This document shows positions 1 through 17,515 of a stretch of DNA of 17,515 nt, piece by piece. Positions within the stretch are counted from its first letter, which is position 1, and each line of letters starts with the position of its first letter. Source of the stretch: Candidatus Thorarchaeota archaeon (GTDB lineage Archaea; Asgardarchaeota; Thorarchaeia; Thorarchaeales; Thorarchaeaceae). Position numbers and translations under genes: made by a program. The notes below the pieces were generated by a model. It ran no database searches. It was given only the letters and a program-made list of their open reading frames with translations, and was not told where the DNA came from. The stretch lies in assembly GCA_016840855.1 (NCBI GenBank), contig JAEORO010000081.1:1-17515 (forward strand), written 5' to 3'.

Positions 1-894
1 GGGATTGCAGCTTCATTGTATATCATATATCGAGTGACAACAATAGTTCCATCTTTCGAATTCTTCCCCTTTATTGAAGGATCACTTTTCACTGATATTC
101 TGGTCATTCTAGGAATTGCGATTCCTGTCATTGTTATTGAGTATTTTATCATCGCACTACCCCTTGCAGCACTTTACCTTTTGGGTAGTCGGATGATAAA
201 ATCAGCCACTTACAACTTCAGCATCATGGACATAGGACAAGACTTTGGAGGTTACCGAATGCTCCGCAGGAGTGTCGCTCCTGCTCTTTTTAGTCTCAGC
301 TCTGCAGGGCTGGTTGTGGGTCTCATTGAGGGAGTTATAACAGAGAGCTATTCCTCTTTTCTTCCTGATGAGCGATATCTGATTGGATTAAGCATAACTC
401 TAATGGGCGCTCTCATAATCATGCCAATTGCTTTAGCATTGTTCATGCCCACATGGATTCTCAATGACGCTGGTATTGTCACACATCTCAAAGAAGGACA
501 ATTGGAAGTTCGACAATGTCCTGACACGGAAGGTGTAGGTCGTTGGTATAGTAGTATGCTTGGAGGTTACTCACTGTTCGCATTTCCAATTGCGATGGTG
601 AGTGCACATTTCATCAGACTTTTCATCATTGAGGGTATAACTCCTGAACCACGATTGCTTCTCATCAGCAGTTTGTGGACCATAGGAATACCTTTGCTCA
701 TGATGGCATTCATAATCCCCGTTGTATTCTTGAATGAAGCAGCGCTGAAAAGATCTATTAGTTTCATTCAACGTTTTGCGCGAGGCCTTGCAGCCAAGGA
801 AGTAGAAAGACCTGTAATTGCGAGAAAAGATGCAAAGAAAAAACCAGAGAAAGAATCTCCAGAAGAACCAGTCAAAGAAGAGCTGGATTTCTGA
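1..894 (+). CDS. Multi-pass membrane protein of unknown function, 5'-truncated by the window edge
   Basis: Frame 1 is open from base 1 (GIAASLYIIY...) to TGA at 892-894. It has several long hydrophobic segments and a charged C-terminal tail (KKKPEKESPEEPVKEELDF). No family recognised. Confidence 0.8.
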   Translation, partial: GIAASLYIIYRVTTIVPSFEFFPFIEGSLFTDILVILGIAIPVIVIEYFIIALPLAALYLLGSRMIKSATYNFSIMDIGQDFGGYRMLRRSVAPALFSLSSAGLVVGLIEGVITESYSSFLPDERYLIGLSITLMGALIIMPIALALFMPTWILNDAGIVTHLKEGQLEVRQCPDTEGVGRWYSSMLGGYSLFAFPIAMVSAHFIRLFIIEGITPEPRLLLISSLWTIGIPLLMMAFIIPVVFLNEAALKRSISFIQRFARGLAAKEVERPVIARKDAKKKPEKESPEEPVKEELDF

Positions 895-2670: not shown

Positions 2671-3138
2671 TTAAGTCGAAGAAAATCTATAGGGGACATA
2701 GTCAGTCATAGGGACCTCTCTTCCGAGCATCTTCAAACCCATAGCAATTTGTCCTCTGTGATACGTAAAATGATTCACTAAATGGAAGTACATCTCATCT
2801 ATGTTTATCACTATAGTCTTTCCATCCCTTTCATCTTCAAAGCTTTCAATGATTCTATCCTCGGCTGCTTTTCGCCATTTTTTTAGATAATCAGAAATAA
2901 GCTGATAGAGCTCTTTTCTTGACATATTATAAAAATCAGGCTCTTCGGGGTTTCCGTCATACCAATCATGAAACCAATCCCACGTATCTTCAGCCAAGTG
3001 AATGTACCTTAGATGAATACTACCTGCACCCTCCCCAAGTGATTGTTCAAATTCGTTAATACCTAAGGTTTCAACTATTCTCCAGATTGAATTATTTGCC
3101 CAAGTCAAGTAGGCTGCCATCTTCTCAATGGGAAACAT
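2671..3138 (-). CDS. DinB/YfiT-family four-helix-bundle putative metalloprotein
   Basis: Motifs YLTWAN, GSIHLRYIHL and HLVNHFTYHRGQI match the DinB His triad; 155 aa. Confidence 0.9.
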   Translation of the reverse strand: MFPIEKMAAYLTWANNSIWRIVETLGINEFEQSLGEGAGSIHLRYIHLAEDTWDWFHDWYDGNPEEPDFYNMSRKELYQLISDYLKKWRKAAEDRIIESFEDERDGKTIVINIDEMYFHLVNHFTYHRGQIAMGLKMLGREVPMTDYVPYRFSST

Positions 3139-3194
3139 AAACTTCCAGTAAGACCCACATCCTAAAGAAGGTAGTCACATTGTCATATGTTAGT

Positions 3195-5297
3195 CTATTG
3201 GGATTCTAAAGATTGACTGAACGATTTCTTGAAATTTTCAGCTTTCTCATTAAATCCATATTTCTCCCACGCTTTCATGGCTGAATCAAACGTGTCCTTG
3301 GCCATGTTTAGATACTTCTCATCCGCCAATCTAATCCATGCTTTAGACAGGAGGTCCATAAGAGGAACTGACATCATTGCTAATTCATAGTCGAATTTAT
3401 GGGGGTCTTGTACAACAATTCTATTCAAGTCAACAACGCGATCTACAATCCTCTTCAATTCTGGTTTCTCAAGAGTGTCAGCAATTAGAGATGCATGATA
3501 GCTTGCAGACATTGCATCATCCCTAATCACTTCACCATACGATAGGAACCACTCTTGCACATCGAGTGCAATATCTACTCCCATTCTTAGAATCCTTGTA
3601 CGTATCTCATCATGAAGTAGTCTCGACGCCAGTGCAGTGAGCGAAGTCATTATGTTGCATAGGTATGTAGCATATGTGGTGGGTCGAGTAATTTGCGTGG
3701 CATCAATTGTGTTGATATCAAGAAGTTGCATAGCTGCATATAGTAACCGAATCTCCGCTTCCGGTAGTTTCTCAGCTCTGGATAGAACAGGCGAAATTGA
3801 GTTTGTCATAACAAAAAGAGAGAATCTAACTCTGGATTTTGGCCACTCTTCAACCATTGTTTCATAGATGTCACGAAGGAACTCAATAGTACGATGGATG
3901 TGGTTGTTTCTTGCATCTCCAGTTGACAGGAAGTAGTATTCAGCATGAGCAACACCCACACTTTGAAACACACTGTCAAGTGTGTACGCAAAGAGCGGCG
4001 TGTTTGTCATCATCAATTCTCTAAAGTAATCCCGATAGAGCTTGAGAACTTCTTCGAGGAAGACTTTACGTTCTCCAATCGATAAAACTGGTGATTCAGT
4101 CAAAGCCGTCAGCACTGCAATATAGTTCTGTAACTTCAATGATGCAGTGATTCCAATTTCAATTCCTTTCCCCTCTTTCTGCAATTCCCACATTAATTCG
4201 TCATTTGTTACCCACCTGATACTCCCAAGAATACTAGACATCTGAGTCTTGTATAAGTCAAGTTCATCCTTGAACCCATCGTAGCTTGTAATCGAATATA
4301 GTTTGTTGAAAATGTGGTTTCTATCTTGAATCGCCTCAATAAATGAACAGTAGACTTCTGACTTTCCCTTATAGAGTCTAACTAACCTACTAGAAAAATC
4401 AGGGTAGTCCACAACTCGAGGGTCAAGAAAGAGAAAACCAAGCATAAGATGTTCATCATCATCAATAAAATCAAAATGGTTCATTGACTCTCTAAAAACA
4501 CGCACATAGTCCGCAGGAATGACTTCACCTGCTACAGACCCAACAAGAACCTTGGCAAAATCAGTGAAAGGGTGATCATTAGGCAGCTTTGAAACAATTG
4601 CTCTTAACTCCGCTAATGTGGGGGGCACCGCTTTTGTCATAGAGTGTGCCAAAGCCCCCATCTTGATACTGAATATTCCTGCTACTACCCCATCATTGTC
4701 TATAGCAACTGCACATGCCTTGTCAAATTCCCCTCTCATAGCATATGCTAATGCATTACCCACTGAACCTATAGACACATCCTTTAGCTTTGCCCATTTC
4801 TCTTCTGGTTCAGGCCTAGCCAGAAGGTCATCAACTTCCAGTAATATTTTTGTAAAACGATCATCATTTCTTAGCTTATCATATACCGGGTTCCAGATAT
4901 CTGAAAGCGCTTCAGGAAATGATGTTTCAACATGATCTCTGACATAGGGATTAAGAATCCGCTCGATTATACTGATCTGTTCGTCATTAACGGAACCATC
5001 TGCGAATTGAATTTCAGACTCATCTATCTTCTCTGCAATGACTCGCAGAAGGCTATCCATATAGTCTTCTGCCTTGCTTACCAGTGCAATCACTGTGAAT
5101 CCTTTATGAGTTTCTGTAACAATCAGTGTGTTATCTTTGAACGCTAATCTTCTTACTTCGCCGCTACCTGTTATGTCACTCAATGCTCTGGTAGCTTCAA
5201 TCAGTGGCCCAAGAATTAGCTCTCCTTCGGCTTCCATTGAGCTCTTAAACTTGATAGGTACACCGCCTTCAGTCAGAACACCCATCAGTCTAATCAT
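3195..5297 (-). CDS. ~700-aa protein with an N-terminal longin-like domain and a long alpha-helical region
   Basis: The start is taken as ATG 5297 rather than TTG 5342. The N-terminus (MIRLMGVLTEGGVPIKFKS...LILGPLIEATRALSDITGSGEVRRLAFKDNTLIVTETHKGFTVIALVS...YMDSLLRVIAEKI) fits a longin beta-beta-alpha-beta-beta-beta-alpha pattern. The remainder looks helical. The ORF is solid; the domain call is by eye. Confidence 0.6.
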   Translation of the reverse strand: MIRLMGVLTEGGVPIKFKSSMEAEGELILGPLIEATRALSDITGSGEVRRLAFKDNTLIVTETHKGFTVIALVSKAEDYMDSLLRVIAEKIDESEIQFADGSVNDEQISIIERILNPYVRDHVETSFPEALSDIWNPVYDKLRNDDRFTKILLEVDDLLARPEPEEKWAKLKDVSIGSVGNALAYAMRGEFDKACAVAIDNDGVVAGIFSIKMGALAHSMTKAVPPTLAELRAIVSKLPNDHPFTDFAKVLVGSVAGEVIPADYVRVFRESMNHFDFIDDDEHLMLGFLFLDPRVVDYPDFSSRLVRLYKGKSEVYCSFIEAIQDRNHIFNKLYSITSYDGFKDELDLYKTQMSSILGSIRWVTNDELMWELQKEGKGIEIGITASLKLQNYIAVLTALTESPVLSIGERKVFLEEVLKLYRDYFRELMMTNTPLFAYTLDSVFQSVGVAHAEYYFLSTGDARNNHIHRTIEFLRDIYETMVEEWPKSRVRFSLFVMTNSISPVLSRAEKLPEAEIRLLYAAMQLLDINTIDATQITRPTTYATYLCNIMTSLTALASRLLHDEIRTRILRMGVDIALDVQEWFLSYGEVIRDDAMSASYHASLIADTLEKPELKRIVDRVVDLNRIVVQDPHKFDYELAMMSVPLMDLLSKAWIRLADEKYLNMAKDTFDSAMKAWEKYGFNEKAENFKKSFSQSLESQ

Positions 5298-5481
5298 TAC
5301 AAACACACTACCGTCTATGTAAACGTACTTTCCGTTCAACAAATTGCGAAAAAAGCCTTCTTGATATGGACTACACGCACCCGTCTACTTTTTTCAATCT
5401 CTCCTAACAATTTGATATAATTACATGAGTCTTAAATATCGCATATTATGGAAATAGACCCACCAATATCAGGTGAGATCA

Positions 5482-6351
5482 ATGTGCGAGTGGTGCTTCA
5501 AACACGGCGATGGTGGCAAATGGTACGAAAATGCTAGATTATACAGGAATGAACTTGCAGACGAGTACAATGCCAGTGAATACCTAGAAGAGCAATGGAA
5601 AAACATGGAAACCCTATTCATTCGAAAGATAATGGGCTTCAATTCAATTGGTCTGGGCTATAAGATGCAGATGCCTATCATTGGTCGTTTGATTCGAAAG
5701 GTTGTTGAAGGTCAAATTCATAGCGAGAAGAAGAACAGGAATCCTGTGAGAGCTGACGGTCACTTTGGCCAAGTGATTCCTCTGGAGGACGCTCAACACA
5801 TCATGGGAAACCTTGCTGCTGAACCCATCATCAAGAACTATTGTGTTTGCAGATGGATGCAGCGAGGTGTTAAAGATGCAGTCTGCATTAACTTCGGTCA
5901 ACTCTCTGAAGTGATTGAGAAGCACACAAGATACATTCCAGAAGGAGTGAAGTACCGGCTTGATCGTGAGGAAGCGATTCAGGCTCTGCAAGAACAAAAT
6001 GAGAGAGGTTATGTCGCATCAGTGTGGTTCCAACCAGTTCCATACATCAATGCGATTTGTTCGTGTGAAACTCCGGAATGCGGTGGATTTCGTCTAAGGA
6101 ATGACTTTGATTTGCGCACTATATACAAAGGAGAGTATCTGATTGATATCGACATCGATAAGTGCCAAGGCTGCAAGTCCTGCGTGAGAATGTGTCAGTT
6201 TAATGCACTAAGATACATCCCATCAGTAAACAGAGTGATTGTTGATTTGGATAAGTGCTTTGGCTGCGGAGTTTGTAGACATGCTTGTAAGCATGATGCT
6301 CTCAATTTAGTTCCAAGAGAGTCTGTACTAGGTCAAGCTGGGAAATATTGA
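5482..6351 (+). CDS. Cys-rich Fe-S protein with a C-terminal 2x[4Fe-4S] ferredoxin domain
   Basis: Two CxxCxxCxxxC motifs (CQGCKSCVRMC, CFGCGVCRHAC) plus MCEWCFKH, CVCR, CINF and ICSCETPEC. AGGTGAG SD precedes ATG 5482 (the ORF track starts at GTG 5473). Confidence 0.85.
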   Translation: MCEWCFKHGDGGKWYENARLYRNELADEYNASEYLEEQWKNMETLFIRKIMGFNSIGLGYKMQMPIIGRLIRKVVEGQIHSEKKNRNPVRADGHFGQVIPLEDAQHIMGNLAAEPIIKNYCVCRWMQRGVKDAVCINFGQLSEVIEKHTRYIPEGVKYRLDREEAIQALQEQNERGYVASVWFQPVPYINAICSCETPECGGFRLRNDFDLRTIYKGEYLIDIDIDKCQGCKSCVRMCQFNALRYIPSVNRVIVDLDKCFGCGVCRHACKHDALNLVPRESVLGQAGKY

Positions 6352-6361
6352 GGTGCCAAGG

Positions 6362-6646
6362 ATGGTAAAGAAGACAAAGATTACAATCGACTACTCAAGG
6401 TGTCACTCAGGTGCAAGTACTGATCCGCGTGATTGCAGAAAATGTCTATTGATCTGTGATCCAGCTGTTTTTCTGATGCATCCAACACTTGAAGACCATC
6501 CAGATCCCCACAATCCCGAAATCTGGAGAATTGATGCAATTTGGCTCTCAAAATGTACTGGTTGTATGAAATGTGTAGACATATGTCCTGAACAGGCAAT
6601 CACTGTCGTTCCTGGTGTTACCCTTTATCAGATGAAGGCCCGATGA
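6362..6646 (+). CDS. Small ferredoxin-like 4Fe-4S protein
   Basis: Motifs IDYSRC(x10)CRKCLLICDP and CTGCMKCVDICPEQAI. GAGGTG SD overlaps the upstream stop and precedes ATG 6362 (alternative GTG 6353). Its 3' end overlaps the convergent gene by 29 nt. Confidence 0.85.
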   Translation: MVKKTKITIDYSRCHSGASTDPRDCRKCLLICDPAVFLMHPTLEDHPDPHNPEIWRIDAIWLSKCTGCMKCVDICPEQAITVVPGVTLYQMKAR

Positions 6647-7610
6647 GCGTAGTTATTGGTCTTGACTGAAGGATGACTAGGCTACCATCTGGTTTGATAC
6701 ACCACTCGATATCCTGAGGGTACTCCATCTCACTCTCAATTTTCAATCCAACCTCTGCAATATCAAATAGGGTTTCATCATCCAGAGTATGTTTTGCCTG
6801 TCTATCCATTGGTGTTTTTTCCAATGTCAATTGTCCTCTCTTAGGAATGGAGGTAAAATTCTTTCCACCAAGAGTGCGTTGAATCACACTAGATGGAGTC
6901 TTCGTTAGTATATAGGTATCAGGTACTATCTTCCCTGAAACAAGAGCGTCACCAAAGCCCCAAGCTGCATTAATCAAAAGCTCATTTGCATTATTATTGG
7001 CAACATTTACAGTAAACATCACGCCTGAAATATCTGCAGGAATCATTTCTTGAACAATGACCGCCATCTTCATTTGTCTAAGAGGAATTCTCTTTGTTTT
7101 TAGATAGATTATAGCACGCTCTGAGAATGCTGATTGCCATACTTTCTTCACTGATTCTATGATTTTTCTAAAGCTCTTTATGCAGAGATAACTTTCTGCC
7201 TGTCCCGCGAATGAAATATCTCTGTGATCTTCTATTGTTGCTGATGACCGTACTGCAAAACCAAGCTCACTGCTCGTGCTTAGCTCATTGAGATTTTGAA
7301 TGCCAATTGTTATCTCAGACTCTAAACTTTTAGGTACTCGATACTTTTCTATCATCTTTTGCAGATTTTCTGAAATCTCTAAAATCTCTTCAAAATCTTC
7401 AGAATCGTCTGCTTGTTTCAGAAAATTGGCTAAATCTTGATTATTTTCTACCATTTGCGCAAACCCAATAGAGGAAATCGAAAACCCTGCTGGTGTGAGA
7501 AAACCGCTTTGTGCCAGTTTTACTAAATTTACAGCTTTTCCTCCATGATTTTCTACATCATCTACTTGAATCTCTTCAAGATTGTGAACAATTTGCAAAT
7601 AATCTATCAC
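6618..7610 (-). CDS. Stand-alone ATP-grasp (PPDK_N) subunit of a PEP-synthase/dikinase-like enzyme
   Basis: Motifs GGKAVNL, AVRSSATIED..SFAGQ, MAVIVQEMI, SGVMFT, WGFGDALVSG..PDTY, PQDIEW and LQSRPIT. The protein ends just after RPIT, with no His or pyruvate-binding domain. Confidence 0.92.
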   Translation of the reverse strand: MIDYLQIVHNLEEIQVDDVENHGGKAVNLVKLAQSGFLTPAGFSISSIGFAQMVENNQDLANFLKQADDSEDFEEILEISENLQKMIEKYRVPKSLESEITIGIQNLNELSTSSELGFAVRSSATIEDHRDISFAGQAESYLCIKSFRKIIESVKKVWQSAFSERAIIYLKTKRIPLRQMKMAVIVQEMIPADISGVMFTVNVANNNANELLINAAWGFGDALVSGKIVPDTYILTKTPSSVIQRTLGGKNFTSIPKRGQLTLEKTPMDRQAKHTLDDETLFDIAEVGLKIESEMEYPQDIEWCIKPDGSLVILQSRPITTLIGPSSDKG

Positions 7611-7957
7611 TCCGTGACAAATAACACACCGGTAGTCCCCTCTTGAGGTTGAATCATCACATATCTTCTATCCAGTTTTTCAGGACTTTCAATCATGGTG
7701 CCCATTAGTGCAGGTATCTCAAACTCTCTTGTGACTATCGCTAGATGAGAGCCAAGAGATCCTGTTAGGCACACGACGCCTGCAAGCCTTGATAGAATCG
7801 GTGCCAGAAAGGTTGTTCCCCCATCATTTACGAGGACTATCTTCCCATCGGGTCCTTCTTTTAGAAGCTGCAACACCTCTTTCATAGTAGTGATATATCT
7901 AAGTTCACCTTCTGCTGCAAGATTTAAAGAAATGAGGCCTCGTGCGATTTCTTTCAA
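7607..7957 (-). CDS. Stand-alone phospho-histidine swivel (PEP-utilizer mobile) domain protein
   Basis: GVVCLTGSLGSHLAIVTREFEIPALMG matches the SH.AIV.RE..IP phosphocarrier signature. Its stop overlaps the start of the ATP-grasp gene (GTGA). TTG start with GAAGGATGGT upstream. Confidence 0.9.
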   Translation of the reverse strand: MKEIARGLISLNLAAEGELRYITTMKEVLQLLKEGPDGKIVLVNDGGTTFLAPILSRLAGVVCLTGSLGSHLAIVTREFEIPALMGTMIESPEKLDRRYVMIQPQEGTTGVLFVTE

Positions 7958-7994
7958 CTTACCATCCTTCCTCGGACTTCAAGCGGGACATATT

Positions 7995-8038
7995 TAGCTT
8001 GTAATAAGCTTCGCGCTAGCTTCTGAAATGCTTAATAC
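7995..8038. promoter_or_regulatory. Four 11-bp-phased WWGCTT units in a divergent promoter (candidate operator array)
   Basis: TAGCTTGTAAT / AAGCTTCGCGC / TAGCTTCTGAA / ATGCTTAATAC start at 7995, 8006, 8017 and 8028. They sit next to a TATA-like TAAATATG on the minus strand at about 7989-7996. Confidence 0.45.
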
Positions 8039-8097
8039 TCACTATTTCTTGAAATTGGATTCAGAGTGCTATTATACATTTGATAGAAGTGGTGGCA

Positions 8098-9255
8098 ATG
8101 GACATCAGTGAAACAAACAAGATGATTCAACACATCTCAGATACTTTTTCTGAAATATTAGCTGAACGCGGGCTTCTTGAATCTGAAATATTCCCAACAA
8201 ATGAGTACATCTCAGTGTCATGCTACCATACCTATTATCATCTTTATGATGTTATGAAACAGGTCTGGGAAAAAACATCACCCGAAAAACTTGCCAAACA
8301 GAGTAAGGTTCTATTATCCGAAATACATGCTCTGTCCATTACGTATCTCTGGCTCTACTACTCACTCGGGCGTATGGGAATCGTCTTCGACAAATGTGAC
8401 AGTAATCCGAAGGAAGAAGCTGAGGAGAAACAGAAGCACTGGCAATGGATGCTTGAGAAGTGGCATAAGCTTGGTACAACCTACTTTAATACTGAAAAAC
8501 CAACAGTTGCTGCATCTGGTGGGAAGAATCTAGCTTTCGATGAGGATGTTTTGAACTGGATAAAGGATAAACTTGAACCAGTTGGAATTGACCAAGTCAA
8601 GAAAATTCGACGTATAATGGGTCAGATAGAGCTCTATGCCTTCATGGATGAGTGTGAGGCACGTGCCAAGCTTATCGACCACGGACCATATCGAATTTCA
8701 GAAGATGAGTTTCTTGTTATGACTGAGTTCACTAGGTTGCATGATGGAAAGGGTGACCTCTGGCTACCTTGGTCTGACACTGAAGCAAAACTCCCATCTG
8801 CTAAGCTAGGCGTGGCAATGACGATTGAAGGGGCTTCGGCTACATTCAACGATATTGGCACAATGACTATTGAGCCTGGTGACTACTCAAATCTCGTCAC
8901 CAGTATTGCAGCATATACAGAACGAGGAAACAAGATTATTCCTCTAGGTCTTGATGAGCTACCTGCATATGGAGATGCTGCAGAAGCTGCTCTCTCTGAG
9001 CTATACATGAAGTTTGCAGACTGGGACAAGAAGAAGCTCATGCTTGCTGGCGCTGTGGCATACTGGAGAGGGTTTGCTCGATATACTGATAAAGTGGGTA
9101 TCACAGGAAAGATTGACTGGAGTATCTCACAGTCTGTTATAGATGAGTATGTGCCATTCTTTATGGACAATGATGCAGATCCGGCTTTCATCAGATTTGG
9201 CCGATTTGATGACGAAATGGAGGAAGATCCAACTCTCTACTTATTACCCGAGTAG
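8098..9255 (+). CDS. Soluble ~385-aa protein of unknown function; candidate acceptor-binding subunit of the split dikinase
   Basis: Long clean ORF (ATG 8098 after GGTGG; the ORF track starts at TTG 8080) divergent from the His/ATP-grasp genes. Notable segments: ERGLLESEIFP, ELYAFMDECEAR..LIDHGPY, LPWSD, FNDIGT. Function is inferred from context only. Confidence 0.7.
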   Translation: MDISETNKMIQHISDTFSEILAERGLLESEIFPTNEYISVSCYHTYYHLYDVMKQVWEKTSPEKLAKQSKVLLSEIHALSITYLWLYYSLGRMGIVFDKCDSNPKEEAEEKQKHWQWMLEKWHKLGTTYFNTEKPTVAASGGKNLAFDEDVLNWIKDKLEPVGIDQVKKIRRIMGQIELYAFMDECEARAKLIDHGPYRISEDEFLVMTEFTRLHDGKGDLWLPWSDTEAKLPSAKLGVAMTIEGASATFNDIGTMTIEPGDYSNLVTSIAAYTERGNKIIPLGLDELPAYGDAAEAALSELYMKFADWDKKKLMLAGAVAYWRGFARYTDKVGITGKIDWSISQSVIDEYVPFFMDNDADPAFIRFGRFDDEMEEDPTLYLLPE

Positions 9256-9264
9256 GTGCTCGTA

Positions 9265-10164
9265 ATGGTAGAGCTTCGTGATACTGATGAATATGCACAT
9301 GAGCCTAATGAGCTTCTTGAGTGGCGCGAGAGCTATTATTTCAACTGGGTGGATCTAGATACAGGTATCTCTGGGTTTTCAACGATTGGACTTCTGCCAA
9401 ACGTATCAAAAAGAGAGTTTGTTTTCGCTCTTTTCTATGATGGAAAACGCGAGGCATACTTCGTTGAGCCTAAGGGTCCAACACCAGAGAACTTCTATGA
9501 ATCTCTCTCAGATGGATTCCTCTCCTTTGAGGTTATTGAGCCATTCAAAGAATGGGCACTCCGGTACAACGGGACGAACCTCAAAGCCAACATTCGTTGG
9601 ACCGGTCGATTTCCAGCTTATGATTTCGGTCATGGGAGTGGTACTTCATGGACGGGTCACTTTGAGCAATCAGGAATAGCAAAAGGAAAAATCGAGTTTA
9701 CAAGTGGAGAAATATTGGAATTTAATGGATATGGAGAACGTGACAAGAGCTGGGGCACTCGAAACTGGCATATCGACAGCTGGTTTGCACTTCATGCTCA
9801 GTTTGATGAGTTATCCATTGGGCTTCGTCTTGACTCTGTTGATGGTCAGTTCCATCCATCTGGTGGAATTAGTACAGTTGAAGGTCACATTCCTATCATA
9901 AAAGTAGAACTTGACACCATCTATCATGAAAAGCAACACAACCTTCCAGTTGGTGCTTTGACAAAGGTCTATGGCAAGGATGGAAGCTGCTATACTCTAC
10001 AATCTTCAATTATCTCTCCAACGAGTTTTATCAGATTTGCACGTGAGTTCGATGAAGGGACAACAGAGCTCTTTGAAGAGATGGCTATTCATCAATGTGA
10101 TGAATTAGGGGCTCGTGGTACAGGACTAATCGAGTGGTTGTTCACTCACTTGAAAGAAAAGTGA
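9265..10164 (+). CDS. AttH/CrtC/tocopherol-cyclase-like double beta-barrel protein
   Basis: Motifs HEP....WRESYYFNWVD, HFEQSG...G.I and GYGERDKSWGTRNW, in a beta-rich sequence. AGGTG SD overlaps the upstream TAG and precedes ATG 9265. Confidence 0.7.
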   Translation: MVELRDTDEYAHEPNELLEWRESYYFNWVDLDTGISGFSTIGLLPNVSKREFVFALFYDGKREAYFVEPKGPTPENFYESLSDGFLSFEVIEPFKEWALRYNGTNLKANIRWTGRFPAYDFGHGSGTSWTGHFEQSGIAKGKIEFTSGEILEFNGYGERDKSWGTRNWHIDSWFALHAQFDELSIGLRLDSVDGQFHPSGGISTVEGHIPIIKVELDTIYHEKQHNLPVGALTKVYGKDGSCYTLQSSIISPTSFIRFAREFDEGTTELFEEMAIHQCDELGARGTGLIEWLFTHLKEK

Positions 10165-15035: not shown

Positions 15036-16751
15036 ATGACCAGAAATGCTGAGGTGGCTCGGATTCTCAAAGAGATTGGTCTATTGCTCGAAGTCGAGGG
15101 CAAAGACCGTTTCAAACCTCTTGCATACTATCGTGGAGTAAGATCTATCACCTCTCTTGGAGAGGATATCGAAGCTGTGGCAAAACGCGATGGGCTCATG
15201 GATATCCCTGGCATTGGTAAAGGTCTTGCAGAAGTAATCAAAACCTATCTTGAAACTGGCGAAGTTGAGCTTCTTAATAAACTTAGAACACGTGTTCCAG
15301 TGAAAGTATTAGAGCTTGACGCAATCCCGGGAGTCGGTCCAAAAACAATCAAACTTGTGTACGAGAAGCTAGGTGTCAAAGACATAGATTCACTTGAACA
15401 GGTTGCCAATGAGGGGAAGCTCTCAGTCTTACCAGGTCTTGGTGAGAAAACCCAAGTACAAATCATTGAGGGAATTCAGATTGTAAGAGCCGGAATGGAG
15501 AGGACTCTCCTCTCTGATGCCATCTCCGTAGCTGAGAGAATCGAGAACGAACTTAGCAAATTGAAGGTCATAGAACAACTTGCGATTGCTGGATCCACAC
15601 GTCGCCGAAGAGAAACCATTGGTGATCTTGACATAATAGTTGTTACAACAGATTCTGAAACCGTAATGGGCTCTTTTGTCAGCTCAGAAGGAGTAACGGC
15701 AGTTCTCGCTCATGGACCCACAAAGTCCTCAGTGCGATTAGACTCCGGTCTGCAAGTAGACCTCAGAGTACTACCTAGTGAGAGTTTTGGCGCAGGTCTT
15801 CAATATTTCACCGGGAGTGTTGATCACAACGTCAAATTGCGTTCAATCGCGCAAAAGATGAAATTACGCCTTAACGAATATGGTTTGTATAAAGACAAGA
15901 AGAGAGTGGCAGGCGAGGATGAAGAGGGTATCTATAGGGCACTTGGACTTCAATATGTTCCTCCTGAATTGAGAGAGGACAAAGGTGAGATCGAAGCCGC
16001 TCAGAAAGGAGAACTCCCTAATCTTGTAACAATGAATGAAATTCATGGAGACCTACATAGTCACACAGACCAGTCAGATGGAAAGAACACGCTTGAAGAG
16101 ATGCTGGATGCTGCTGAGGGACATGGCTACAACTACTATTGTGTTTCAGACCATACAAAGAGTCTCACAATCGCAAATGGAATGGATGAAGAACGCCTTC
16201 TGAAGAGACTAGAGGAGATTGATGGGCTCAATGCATCTGGTCGCTGGAAGATGAAGATACTGAAAGGTGCTGAGGTAGATATCCTAGCTGATGGTAGCCT
16301 TGACATTGAAGACACTGTTTTGTCGCAGTTAGATATTGTCACAGTTTCTATTCACAGTCGGATGAAAGATAAGAAAAACACCATGACTGAACGAGTCTGC
16401 CATGCTTTAGAAAACAAGTACATTCACATTCTGGGTCATCCGACTGGTCGTCTAATCGGCAAGCGATCTGAGTTTGAGATTGACTTAGAGCAAGTATTTG
16501 AAACAGCCAAAAAACACAATGTAATCATGGAGCTAAATGCTCATCCGCAAAGATTGGACCTAAATGCTGGTAACTTGCGGGTTGCCACTAAGATTGGTCT
16601 GAAGATAGCGATAAATACAGACGCCCACGCAATCTCAGAACTTGATAATATGCGATTTGGAGTCTACCAAGCTCGTCGTGGTTGGCTAACTCCCGATGAT
16701 GTCATCAATACATATTCTTTGAAGAAACTTATGAAATTCATCAAGAAATAG
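15036..16751 (+). CDS. polX: Family X DNA polymerase with C-terminal PHP domain (PolX)
   Basis: HhH motifs (IPGIGKG, IPGVGPKT, LPGLGEKT), AGSTRRRRETIGDLDI (DxD), QVDLRV and LQYFTGS. PHP motifs DLHSHT, SDH, GAEVDI, GHPTGR, ELN and NTDAH. GGAGG SD. Confidence 0.96.
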   Translation: MTRNAEVARILKEIGLLLEVEGKDRFKPLAYYRGVRSITSLGEDIEAVAKRDGLMDIPGIGKGLAEVIKTYLETGEVELLNKLRTRVPVKVLELDAIPGVGPKTIKLVYEKLGVKDIDSLEQVANEGKLSVLPGLGEKTQVQIIEGIQIVRAGMERTLLSDAISVAERIENELSKLKVIEQLAIAGSTRRRRETIGDLDIIVVTTDSETVMGSFVSSEGVTAVLAHGPTKSSVRLDSGLQVDLRVLPSESFGAGLQYFTGSVDHNVKLRSIAQKMKLRLNEYGLYKDKKRVAGEDEEGIYRALGLQYVPPELREDKGEIEAAQKGELPNLVTMNEIHGDLHSHTDQSDGKNTLEEMLDAAEGHGYNYYCVSDHTKSLTIANGMDEERLLKRLEEIDGLNASGRWKMKILKGAEVDILADGSLDIEDTVLSQLDIVTVSIHSRMKDKKNTMTERVCHALENKYIHILGHPTGRLIGKRSEFEIDLEQVFETAKKHNVIMELNAHPQRLDLNAGNLRVATKIGLKIAINTDAHAISELDNMRFGVYQARRGWLTPDDVINTYSLKKLMKFIKK

Positions 16752-16766
16752 GAACCATTTGTAGAT

Positions 16767-16821
16767 AGTCACATCTTGTGACTTCATCCTGTGACCCCGA
16801 AATGTGGCTTCGCTATATATA
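16767..16821 (+). promoter_or_regulatory. Palindrome, 13-bp-phased TGTGRC repeats and TATA box upstream of the small-ORF cluster
   Basis: Perfect inverted repeat AGTCACA-TCT-TGTGACT (16767-16783). TGTGAC/TGTGAC/TGTGGC at 16777, 16790 and 16803. TATATATA at 16814-16821, about 32 nt before ATG 16854. Confidence 0.55.
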
Positions 16822-16853
16822 CCAAAACTGAGCAGTATTTCTTGTGAAATATC

Positions 16854-16955
16854 ATGGCTCTAACAACTAACTCACGAAATACATTTGTGCTGAAGAACAA
16901 CAAGGCAACAGTTTCCACTGATGCCCTGACCTATGCATACATCTATCGGAGGTAA
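16854..16955 (+). CDS. Small ORF 1, 33 aa: MALTTNSRNTFVLKNNKATVSTDALTYAYIYRR
   Basis: Translated by hand (below the ORF-track cutoff). It lies just downstream of a TATA box and resembles sORF2. Confidence 0.6.
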   Translation: MALTTNSRNTFVLKNNKATVSTDALTYAYIYRR

Positions 16956-16962
16956 GGTCGAA

Positions 16963-17058
16963 GTGGCACTAGCGAAGGTTGAGAAGAAATTCTTGAAGGA
17001 CTCTTTTGAACCGAGAATTAGTACCGATGCTATTACTCGCGTATACTTCAGGAGATAG
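16963..17058 (+). CDS. Small ORF 2, 31 aa: MALAKVEKKFLKDSFEPRISTDAITRVYFRR
   Basis: GTG start 9 nt after GGAGGT (16948-16953), which is embedded in the end of sORF1. Shares MAL, F.LK, [VI]STDA[LI]T and terminal RR with sORF1. Confidence 0.6.
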   Translation: MALAKVEKKFLKDSFEPRISTDAITRVYFRR

Positions 17059-17064
17059 ATTTGG

Positions 17065-17181
17065 ATGAATGATATCCACTCTTCATTAAGCACACCCTCA
17101 AATCAAGAGGTTCAGAATACTCGTACCAGAGATGGTAGCAAACTCTCTCTAGCTGAAGTGCTCGCGCTGGAAGCAACGTGA
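17065..17181 (+). CDS. Small ORF 3, 38 aa: MNDIHSSLSTPSNQEVQNTRTRDGSKLSLAEVLALEAT
   Basis: The ATG is 6 nt after the sORF2 stop, with an AGGAG SD embedded in the end of sORF2, and a T-tract follows. No similarity to sORF1 or sORF2. Confidence 0.42.
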   Translation: MNDIHSSLSTPSNQEVQNTRTRDGSKLSLAEVLALEAT

Positions 17182-17188
17182 GCACCAA

Positions 17189-17201
17189 TTCTCTTTTTTC
17201 T
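17189..17201 (+). terminator. Archaeal-type oligo-T terminator after the small-ORF cluster
   Basis: TTCTCTTTTTTCT begins 8 nt after the sORF3 stop. Confidence 0.45.
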
Positions 17202-17263: not shown

Positions 17264-17381
17264 TGGTGCCGAGGATGGGATTCGAACCCACGAACTCCTA
17301 CAAGAACGGATGCCTCATCATAGTCTGGCGACAATTGATTGATCTTGAGTCCGTCGCCGTTGACCGCTTGGCTACCTCGGC
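17264..17381 (-). tRNA. trnL: tRNA-Leu(CAA) with a 32-nt canonical intron (17312-17343) and encoded CCA
   Basis: The reverse complement reads GCCGAGG TAGCCAAGCGGTCAACGGCG ACGGA CT CAA G [intron] A TCCGT, then a long variable arm, GTGGG TTCGAAT CCCAT CCTCGGC A CCA. BHB motif: CUCA/UGAG 4-bp helix with AG|A and GC|A 3-nt bulges. Confidence 0.96.
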
Positions 17382-17515
17382 TCATCATGTAGGAAGATTT
17401 AATCTCAATATAGCCGTTTTGGCTACTTTGACAGAATATTAGAATTTACAATGGTCTTAACTTGTTTCTAAATGAGGTCTAATCTTGGCATAGAAATCTG
17501 AGATAATCTTAGACC

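Follow-up and report, generated by a model that had tools for sequence, protein, structure and literature searches.

In the genome of Candidatus Thorarchaeota archaeon, the gap of 515 bp between a PolX-type polymerase gene (ending at 16751) and a minus-strand transfer RNA (tRNA) gene holds three chained small open reading frames (sORF1, sORF2 and sORF3, encoding the peptides P1, P2 and P3). The stretch analyzed here comprises positions 1 to 17,515 of contig JAEORO010000081.1 (assembly GCA_016840855.1) and is referred to as the window. On the basis of comparison with a large number of related loci, the three ORFs constitute a real operon of three tiny proteins, which seems to be tightly controlled and driven by its own operator-promoter, and the encoded peptides represent an undescribed, multi-copy microprotein family of Asgard archaea that is limited to one Thorarchaeota family. 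The explanation that we favor, with a confidence about evenly balanced between acceptance and doubt, is that the operon is self-contained and that its products are trans-acting microproteins of a stress-type regulon. An earlier reading of the same DNA from its letters only (hereafter the sequence-only reading) had proposed an unannotated small-protein family at this place and had named regulatory, signaling or precursor peptides as examples.

Architecture of the locus

The first ORF, sORF1 (16854-16955, plus strand), encodes a basic peptide of 33 amino acids (aa) with an ATG start and a TAA stop, and ORFs of its type head nearly all cassettes of the family. After a spacer of 7 nucleotides (nt) it is followed by its paralogue sORF2 (16963-17058, plus strand), which starts with GTG in this genome, stops with TAG and encodes a basic peptide of 31 aa; a 6-nt spacer then leads to sORF3 (17065-17181, plus strand; 38 aa, ATG start and TGA stop). 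The Shine-Dalgarno (SD) motif of sORF2, GGAGGT (16948-16953, plus strand), overlaps the last codons and the stop of sORF1, and the SD-like motif of sORF3, AGGAGA (17050-17055, plus strand), overlaps the end of sORF2. Upstream of the chain, an TATATATA TATA box was read from the sequence at 16814-16821 (plus strand), and the last ORF ends within an RNA hairpin (17158-17185, plus strand), 9 nt beyond which lies a T-run (17194-17199, plus strand) that is a likely archaeal termination signal. When the sequence was re-read, the ORFs, spacers, TATATATA and T-run of the sequence-only reading were all present at their claimed positions, and the two SD motifs were embedded in the preceding ORF ends as it had described. 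Its suspicion that the terminal RR of the peptides partly reflects the overlapping SD also holds, as the codons CGG AGG are the ribosome-binding site of the next ORF.

Two further features of the reading frames should be mentioned. An extra in-frame ATG at 16933, within sORF1, would extend sORF2 to 41 aa, and it is mostly absent from the aligned relatives. In addition, sORF2 and sORF3 share one frame, in which they are separated by a single TAG stop and two codons, an arrangement that recurs in all 24 genome matches. From the end of the trio to the end of the window at 17515, the same strand contains no gene to read into, and the convergent tRNA gene is found there instead.

Coding evidence and selection on the peptides

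All three frames are maintained in relatives. All 95 distinct copies of sORF1 had an open frame, and stops interrupted the +1 and +2 frames in 95 and 90 of them, respectively; for sORF2, the frame was open in all 57 distinct copies, 38 and 46 of which carried stops in the other two frames. P1-type ORFs always started with ATG, and P2-type ORFs always with ATG, GTG or TTG (ATG in 51 of the 57 distinct relatives); an SD-like motif was present within 16 nt upstream of all 57 sORF2-type starts. Ratios of nonsynonymous to synonymous substitution (dN/dS) were calculated for 11 orthologous cassettes and amounted to 0.37 for sORF1 (vs 1.10 and 1.08 off-frame) and 0.24 for sORF2 (vs 0.89 and 1.29 off-frame). 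Variable third positions numbered 23, 24 and 30, compared with 11-23 at positions 1 and 2, and the indels in an alignment of 10 species preserved the frames. Selection on the peptide had previously been suggested on the ground that the STDA motif shared by sORF1 and sORF2 is written with synonymously different codons (TCC ACT GAT GCC and AGT ACC GAT GCT, respectively). These codons are as reported, and the proposal is now supported by frames that are open in all distinct relatives and by in-frame ratios well below the off-frame range of 0.9-1.3. Within P1 and P2, conservation is highest in the last 10-13 residues, and the middle varies and diverges fast.

The sORF3 frame was likewise open in 27 of 27 distinct copies, the other two frames carrying stops in 26 and 27. 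Its start codons were ATG (17), TTG (7) and GTG (3), and each of the 27 sORF3-type starts was preceded by an SD-like motif. When whole P3 was considered in the 11 orthologous cassettes, its dN/dS of 0.58 was not distinct from that of one off-frame (0.61). The N-terminal part of P3 is variable and polar, and the C-terminal octapeptide EVLALEAT was invariant in the 14 orthologues analyzed; for the last eight codons, the proportion of nonsynonymous differences (pN) was 0.000 vs a proportion of synonymous differences (pS) of 0.32, that is, the residues are kept and the codons vary.

The hairpin at 17158-17185 is built from the last sORF3 codons, the stop codon, which lies in the 3' arm (17179-17181), and the beginning of the 3' untranslated region (UTR). 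Its folding energy is -17 kcal/mol (z -2.28), and 2 of 200 shuffles folded equally well. Across 26 copies, 87% of the cells could pair, vs at most 47% with a slid partner, and five pairs change on both sides, values that none of 500 shuffles reached. In one of the compensating pairs, the wobble base of a Leu codon (CTC/CTT) is joined to the second base of the stop (TGA/TAA). Since the hairpin covers the last P3 codons and the stop, the P3 tail is doubly constrained, at the level of both the peptide and the RNA. In the aligned copies, the hairpin is followed by T-rich stretches. The idea that P3 is a relic of a pump N-terminus was also considered and was rejected (hhalign probability 0.1%).

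Paralogy of sORF1 and sORF2 and apparent fusion proteins

The sequence-only reading had described two of the peptides as apparently paralogous and had named shuffled controls as a check on their similarity. In BLASTP, sORF1 and sORF2 matched each other with an E value of 1e-4. Their local alignment score was reached by 2 of 20,000 shuffles, and again by 2 of 20,000 when MAL and the terminal RR were left out, and a profile of P1 (50 relatives) aligned to a profile of P2 (45 relatives) with a probability of 98.3% and an E value of 1.3e-14 in hhalign. The paralogy thereby withstood the shuffled-control check, and on this evidence we consider sORF1 and sORF2 to be true paralogues. The scores of sORF3 against sORF1 and sORF2 were reached by 19,507 and 8,660 of 20,000 shuffles, respectively, and sORF3 is judged to be unrelated to either of them.

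Five library proteins of 70-90 aa (P0011, P0039, P0041, P0061 and P0064) resemble fusions of P2 and P3. All five have Q exactly at the position of the genomic stop, and one has a further Q past the P3 end. At least one in-frame stop was present in 24 of 24 genome matches; among five related metagenome loci, the three that were translated carry in-frame stops, two of them two stops. Natural P2-P3 fusions, which would have served as Rosetta-stone evidence, were therefore rejected because of the Q at stop positions, and the proteins are read as gene calls under a TAG=Q code. Folding of the alignment of the fusion proteins gave a poor model (predicted local distance difference test (pLDDT) 62.5, predicted template modeling score (pTM) 0.20). 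Library proteins of this kind, with Q at stop positions, should be distrusted.

Operator, promoter and 5' end

An operator array occupies 16768-16808 (plus strand). It consists of an inverted repeat, GTCACA-TCT-TGTGAC (16768-16782), and two direct half-sites 13 bp apart, TGTGAC (16790-16795) and TGTGGC (16803-16808), which abut the region of the B recognition element (BRE) and the TATA box. The array was kept in 21 of 21 aligned copies and would be bound by a protein. The pattern TGTGNC-N8-GTGGC-N5-TATATATA matched 115 stretches in public species genomes, and among the 80 titles listed of these matches all were Thorarchaeota, Promethearchaeota or 'uncultured archaeon'. The unit of operator, TATA box, short 5'UTR and P1 is repeated, with three copies in this genome and 2-7 matches per relative. 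Judging by the usual distance from TATA box to start in archaea, the transcript would begin near 16844-16846, which would leave a 5'UTR of ∼8-10 nt that carries no Shine-Dalgarno motif.

Between the TATA box and codon 6 of P1, an alignment of 97 unique copies showed at least 80% identity in most of its columns. Codon choice in this segment is strikingly uniform when compared with usage in the long genes of the window: codon 2 (Ala) was GCT in 97 of 97 copies (31% usage), codon 3 CTA in 85 of 91 Leu codons (15%), codon 5 ACT in 79 of 84 Thr codons (29%) and codon 6 AAC in 72 of 95 Asn codons (35%). RNAalifold detected no consensus structure (-0.5 kcal/mol) and no covarying pair in the P1 region. 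We take the fixed 5' end of P1 to be a signal for initiation of transcription or translation on a nearly leaderless mRNA, perhaps aided by gene conversion. In three of six genomes, the P1 copies at two loci of one genome were more alike (0.93-0.95) than either was to its best orthologue, and P2 was locus-specific in four of the six genomes compared, which suggests that such gene conversion may be confined to the promoter-P1 module.

A scan of the locus for bacterial-type promoters and terminators called nothing, as expected for an archaeon. Assembled contigs of four metatranscriptome runs were aligned at 80% likeness, and two short contigs matched the promoter and sORF1 of relatives (window 16766-16922, <90% identity). 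As they include the untranscribed promoter, they are no proof of transcription and may represent DNA carry-over.

Distribution of the family and searches against known families

In a DNA search, all 24 further genomes of the genus contained the region, compared with none of 16 genomes from outside it. A profile of 95 P1 and P2 sequences was then used for wider searches. Class-wide, 85 of 87 genomes matched (window's family, 84 of 85; sister family, 0 of 1), and the single miss in the window's family is a genome that is ∼80% complete. In a phylum-wide sample, all 59 genomes of one Thorarchaeota family had matches, compared with none of 191 genomes from 27 other Asgard families. The genome studied here has nine matches to the profile. 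A library of 1.84 billion representative proteins yielded 66 matches at an E value of 0.001, and 56 of these are 29-46 aa long.

No family match was obtained for the three peptides in Pfam, NCBIfam or PADLOC, and PHROGs gave no significant match (best E value 0.099). When the 95 family members were searched against Pfam, no match was better than an E value of 0.02, and hits to any one Pfam family came from a single member at most. The best hit among Protein Data Bank (PDB) sequences had an E value of 0.83, and the sORF3 profile had none; in the ESM Atlas, P1 had no usable hit and P3 reached at best 0.85, to unnamed clusters. With Rfam 15, the tRNA alone matched at the gathering score in the whole window. 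The PDB hit (5myj), to bacterial ribosomal protein S14 at its N-terminus, was rejected as chance; none of the 95 family members matches Ribosomal_S14 in Pfam, and the S14 of this genome contains no such motif. Thus, the earlier view of an unannotated small-protein family agrees with the absence of matches to curated families and with the frames, starts and SD motifs kept in relatives.

No closer relatives of eukaryotes are known than the Asgard archaea, of which hardly any have been cultured; therefore, their small proteome is invisible to annotation. In the literature on small proteins of Asgard archaea and Thorarchaeota and on archaeal small ORFs and leader peptides, no description of the family was found, and two surveys of small ORFs and antimicrobial peptides, in their accessible portions, mention Asgard archaea only in passing. 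Ribosome profiling and peptidomics have been applied to the small proteomes of Methanosarcina mazei (PMC11456600) and Haloferax volcanii (PMC10117724). According to the accessible parts of these reports, the proteins described there are encoded, like those of the present family, by unannotated archaeal ORFs of at most 70 codons, which are translated there and sometimes have a regulatory role, as may be the case here; they differ in having no sequence relation to the present family and in having been verified experimentally, whereas this family is known from genomes alone. Several copies of the family are present in each sampled genome of one Thorarchaeota family, behind one of its best-conserved promoters, and 'empty' gaps of such type in Thorarchaeota contain genes.

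Paralogous cassettes and their neighbors

The ORF chain was read behind those 73 unique promoter copies for which 600 nt or more of downstream sequence was available, and the first ORF was P1-type in 69 of them. The stand-alone trio P1-P2-P3 was the most common class (20 copies, plus five in which another middle peptide stands between P1 and P3, hereafter P1-X-P3). P1 was followed by P2 only in 12 copies, by P2 and then directly by an MFS pump in nine, by a different conserved peptide of 39-44 aa (P4) in 11, and by some other chain in 12. Among 79 downstream same-strand ORFs of at least 90 aa, 61 were scanned, the 18 omitted being mostly the shorter of two at a locus. Transporters of the MFS_1 or MFS_3 type accounted for 29 of the 61 and GNAT acetyltransferases for 13 (11 Acetyltransf_3 and two Acetyltransf_1); tRNA_edit (YbaK-like), Hemerythrin and SH3 were represented by two ORFs each, two ORFs belonged to other Pfam families, and 11 ORFs had no Pfam family.

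P4 (C257:66000-85999, ∼9200-9810, minus strand; also at L016, L019, L026 and L057) follows a P1 variant ending in TVVR. Its tail reads ...GHRTGQLVSETAYxVTNL, and its coding DNA contains GGTCACA...TGTGACC repeats. Further P-type ORFs come after P4, and an MFS_1 pump or a GNAT follows them.

In this genome, the family is present at five places, namely the window (C10) and contigs C256, C257, C86 and C107. The C256 copy (P1-P2) lies near a desulfoferrodoxin gene and a GNAT, and the C257 copy comprises P1, P4 and two more P-type ORFs, with an MFS_1 pump ∼370 nt beyond. The C86 copy (34630-34716, minus strand, and flanks) is a much diverged, complete P1-P2-P3 whose promoter is different and lacks the TGTGAC array and whose P3 stop is likewise covered by a hairpin and T-run; judging from this recurrence, the trio is likely to be a unit. 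The C107 copy (20000-26407, at ∼24141-24233, minus strand) is a lone P2-type ORF of 31 aa without the TGTGAC operator; a GC-rich hairpin lies downstream of this ORF, and upstream of it there is an unrelated ORF of 35 aa (MAGETANNES...) that has an SD of its own.

A proposed regulon with a candidate regulator

With the TATA box in place, the operator-promoter occurs five times in this genome, in front of three cassettes, a bactofilin-like gene (C240) and a gene for a membrane protein of 385 aa (C196). The C196 product (3500-9500 stretch, 2834-3991, minus strand) is a multi-pass protein whose N-terminus is acidic and for which Pfam gave no match. At the C240 site (20500-26500 stretch, 2820-4503, minus strand), the gene directly upstream codes for a winged-helix protein of 107 aa (HTH_45) and was found in 55 of 61 genomes of the family. 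The operator-promoter was present in 23 of 30 loci fetched around this gene, mostly just 3' of it and before the bactofilin-like gene. This adjacency makes the HTH_45 protein a candidate for binding the operator. The candidate regulator was also detected in three other Asgard families (18 of 19, 23 of 26 and 4 of 5 genomes), and it is older than the peptide family; since the peptides are absent from all 191 genomes outside their own family, the cassettes would have been added to an older regulon. The conserved operator and the candidate winged-helix regulator together provide a defined, testable regulon in an uncultured lineage.

A comparable arrangement is the TFB-RF1 regulon of Pyrococcus furiosus, in which, as far as the accessible part of the report goes, a palindrome (TCTGAANTTCAGA) is located just upstream of a weak BRE and the bound protein activates transcription (PMC5937170). 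The two share a palindrome just upstream of BRE/TATA, transporter operons and conservation together with a regulator gene; they differ in the motif, TCTGAANTTCAGA there and GTCACA-N3-TGTGAC with TGTGAC/TGTGGC half-sites here, and in that the regulator here is only a candidate. On account of the different binding motif in the accessible text (PMC5937170), TFB-RF1 was rejected as a match for the operator.

Properties of the peptides

The mean net charge is +5.2 for P1, +5.9 for P2 and -2.4 for P3 (range of P3, -6 to +2). P1 and P2 are hydrophilic, with negative mean hydrophobicity, and Trp was found in none of 50 P1 and in five of 45 P2 sequences. They are not amphipathic, the best hydrophobic moment over 18 residues being 0.28, less than for shuffled versions of the same peptides (z -0.8 and -0.9). 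AlphaFold2, run on 50 sequences, modeled P1 as a single helix of residues 5-32 (pLDDT 71, pTM 0.27), and periodicity of conservation over the full length was strongest at 110 degrees for P1 and 100 degrees for P2. This periodicity hints at a possible conserved helical face, S-T-x-A-[LI]-x-x-A-Y, in both peptides. P1 and P2 look like folded helices rather than tunnel motifs. A prediction of a P1+P2+P3 complex, run without controls, scored 0.02, which speaks neither for binding nor against it.

Possible functions of the trio

We favor the trans-acting reading because the locus is self-contained, the trio recurs, selection extends over the full length of the peptides, P1 and P2 look helical and no attenuator-like RNA was detected. 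Under this model, transcription would start ∼25 nt past the consensus TATA box beside the TGTGAC half-sites, with HTH_45 as the candidate regulator. sORF1 would be translated from the 5' end of the mRNA with almost no leader, and sORF2 and sORF3 via the ribosome-binding sites within the stop region of the preceding ORF, and the transcript would end at the hairpin and T-run that overlap the sORF3 stop. P1, P2 and P3 would then act in trans, in a regulon that would also include the MFS pumps, GNATs, the bactofilin-like protein and the membrane protein. Because of the charge of P1 and P2 and their lack of amphipathicity, the target is probably nucleic acid, the ribosome or a partner within the regulon, and P3 is possibly a counter-charged partner. 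If the peptides are trans-acting effectors, they would be a new class of archaeal stress microproteins.

Several observations weigh against this interpretation. The structure models are of modest to low confidence, and a look-up of RNA runs for the window stretch listed none. The first six P1 codons are constrained as nucleotides, so that part of the conservation is not related to protein. The N-terminal part of P3 is weakly constrained, with a dN/dS of 0.61 vs 0.71 in one off-frame (14 orthologues). Peptide conservation is strongest beside the stop codons of P1, P2 and P3, as in arrest peptides. Finally, nearly half of the downstream ORFs scanned (29/61) are MFS genes, and nine unique pump starts are chained directly to a P2 stop in a leader-like layout.

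The last two points lead to the best-surviving alternative, a cis-acting leader chain, which we regard as possible and clearly the less probable of the two. Here, the ORFs would be arrest or coupling sensors that gate the next cistron, and the pump-less polX copy would be derived and gate sORF3 or the terminator only. A ribosome stalled at one of the stop codons would occlude the ribosome-binding site of the following ORF, and one held at the sORF3 stop would block the hairpin in a manner like TnaC or pyrBI. The positions of the SD motifs suit this mechanism, each lying inside the preceding stop region and within the footprint of a terminating ribosome. So do the peaks of conservation at the C-terminal ends (10-13 residues in P1 and P2, eight in P3), the MFS and GNAT genes downstream with the chained pump starts, and the sORF3 stop in the 3' arm of a covarying hairpin; at some copies of the polX locus, moreover, a same-strand gene is located right past the hairpin (tRNA_edit/YbaK at two loci and Imm5-like at one). 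However, what follows in the window is a convergent tRNA and not a same-strand gene, stand-alone trios are the commonest class, conservation of P1 and P2 extends over the entire peptides and has a helical period, and no alternative RNA structure was found in the P1 region. Archaeal termination is mainly driven by T-tracts and a hairpin is not needed; the T-run here lies 9 nt past the stem, so the element is not a canonical hairpin-dependent terminator.

Leader control by upstream ORFs is known from bacterial resistance and efflux genes, including the erm, cat and cmlA leaders, tetA(L), mef/mel and BmrB-bmrCD. The paralogous cassettes are similar to these in having very short ORFs before a pump or modifying enzyme and a next ribosome-binding site that overlaps the end of the leader. 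In contrast, the window locus has no downstream gene and no alternative RNA pairing was found in it, and the peptides of the family are ∼30 aa long, conserved over their whole length, multi-copy and archaeal. TnaC, SpeFL and PepNL are termination-arrest peptides, and pyrBI has an attenuator leader ORF in E. coli; with these, the trio has in common the strongest conservation just before the stop and a sORF3 stop in a hairpin near a T-run. It differs from them in that the window locus has no ligand, no Rho/rut logic and no downstream gene, and in the distance of the T-run from the stem. If the peptides are translational sensors, they would represent leader-peptide control in Archaea.

The trans-effector and leader-chain readings may both be true. 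In such a two-in-one device, the peptides would gate the chained efflux pumps as ribosome-borne sensors, the peptides of the free-standing copies would act in trans, and the P3 tail and hairpin would set the progress of transcript and ribosome; we think this combination rather unlikely. If true, the prokaryotes most closely related to eukaryotes would possess leader-peptide-type control that also has a trans arm, a device of a kind not described in archaea. A partial parallel is peTrpL of Sinorhizobium meliloti, a leader peptide that, according to the accessible part of the report, also acts in trans on a multidrug-efflux operon (PMC7298713). Both cases concern a tiny peptide tied to the control of efflux genes that may work in cis and in trans, whereas peTrpL is bacterial, is part of a Trp attenuator, has a demonstrated trans function and shares no sequence similarity with the present family, which is known from genes alone.

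Another possibility is that the peptides are exported as leaderless bacteriocin-like or signaling peptides, for which the MFS_3-type pumps of the paralogous cassettes would provide export or immunity. We consider this improbable. The peptides are short and cationic, carry no signal or leader sequence and are encoded by tandem paralogous genes, as in the multi-peptide operons of leaderless bacteriocins (aureocin A70, garvicin KS and enterocin L50), which encode cationic peptides of 30-45 aa without a leader and which, like some copies of this family, have transporters nearby. The family is also multi-copy, with fast-diverging middle parts, and pumps of the MFS_3 type ('transmembrane secretion effector') are chained to paralogous cassettes. 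Unlike bacteriocins, P1 and P2 are hydrophilic, would form non-amphipathic helices and rarely contain Trp. The window locus contains neither a transporter (the MFS pumps being restricted to paralogous cassettes) nor an immunity gene, and the family is conserved within one archaeal family rather than strain-variable. It should also be noted that MFS_3 pumps usually move small molecules and that the known leaderless bacteriocins use ABC transporters, which counts against this reading.

A much weaker candidate is that the ORFs encode precursors of ribosomally synthesized and post-translationally modified peptides (RiPPs) whose maturase is encoded elsewhere, which we regard as very improbable. Several paralogous short peptides with conserved ends and an aromatic-rich C-terminus (H/Y-A-Y-x-Y) would be compatible with it. 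On the other hand, conserved ends with a variable middle are the reverse of a leader-core layout, Cys was found in only one of 50 sORF1-type and one of 45 sORF2-type peptides, and the recurrent neighbors are pumps and acetyltransferases, with no maturases. The sequence-only reading had noted that no modifying enzyme is adjacent; in agreement with this, none was identified among the 13 proteins of the 17.5-kb window that were scanned or among 12 neighbors of the C256 and C257 copies. Because of the lack of an adjacent maturase and the near absence of Cys, precursor function is the least supported of the three examples (regulatory, signaling and precursor) that it had offered. Lastly, a non-coding regulatory RNA or DNA element with incidental ORFs can hardly be credited, in spite of the nucleotide conservation of promoter, 5'UTR and first six codons and of the covarying 3' hairpin, as third-position variation dominates, the frames are open in all copies while other frames are closed, start codons and SD motifs are conserved, the P3 tail has a pN of 0 with a pS of 0.32, Rfam matches only the tRNA and the P1 region has no consensus structure.

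Flanking genes

The window contains three long ORFs without a Pfam match at an E value of 0.01, at 16-894 (plus strand, 292 aa), 3195-5342 (minus strand, 715 aa) and 8080-9255 (plus strand, 391 aa). The flanks of the trio are those that had been proposed earlier. The upstream neighbor was identified as a PolX-type polymerase by a Pfam scan (domains DNA_pol_B_thumb, HHH_8 and PHP), and the downstream tRNA gene (17267-17381, minus strand) by Rfam, with a score of 47.1 bits. ARAGORN reported no tRNA anywhere in the window and thus missed this gene, which has an insertion of 35 nt in the anticodon loop; by our own reading of the sequence, it would be a tRNA-Leu(CAA) that contains an intron and has a long variable arm. 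A YbaK-like gene separates the cassette from the tRNA in some relatives, which is not the case in the window. PolX was found directly upstream of the cassette at 26 further loci and a tRNA gene beside it at 12, and the polX locus is an old and stable home of the cassette.

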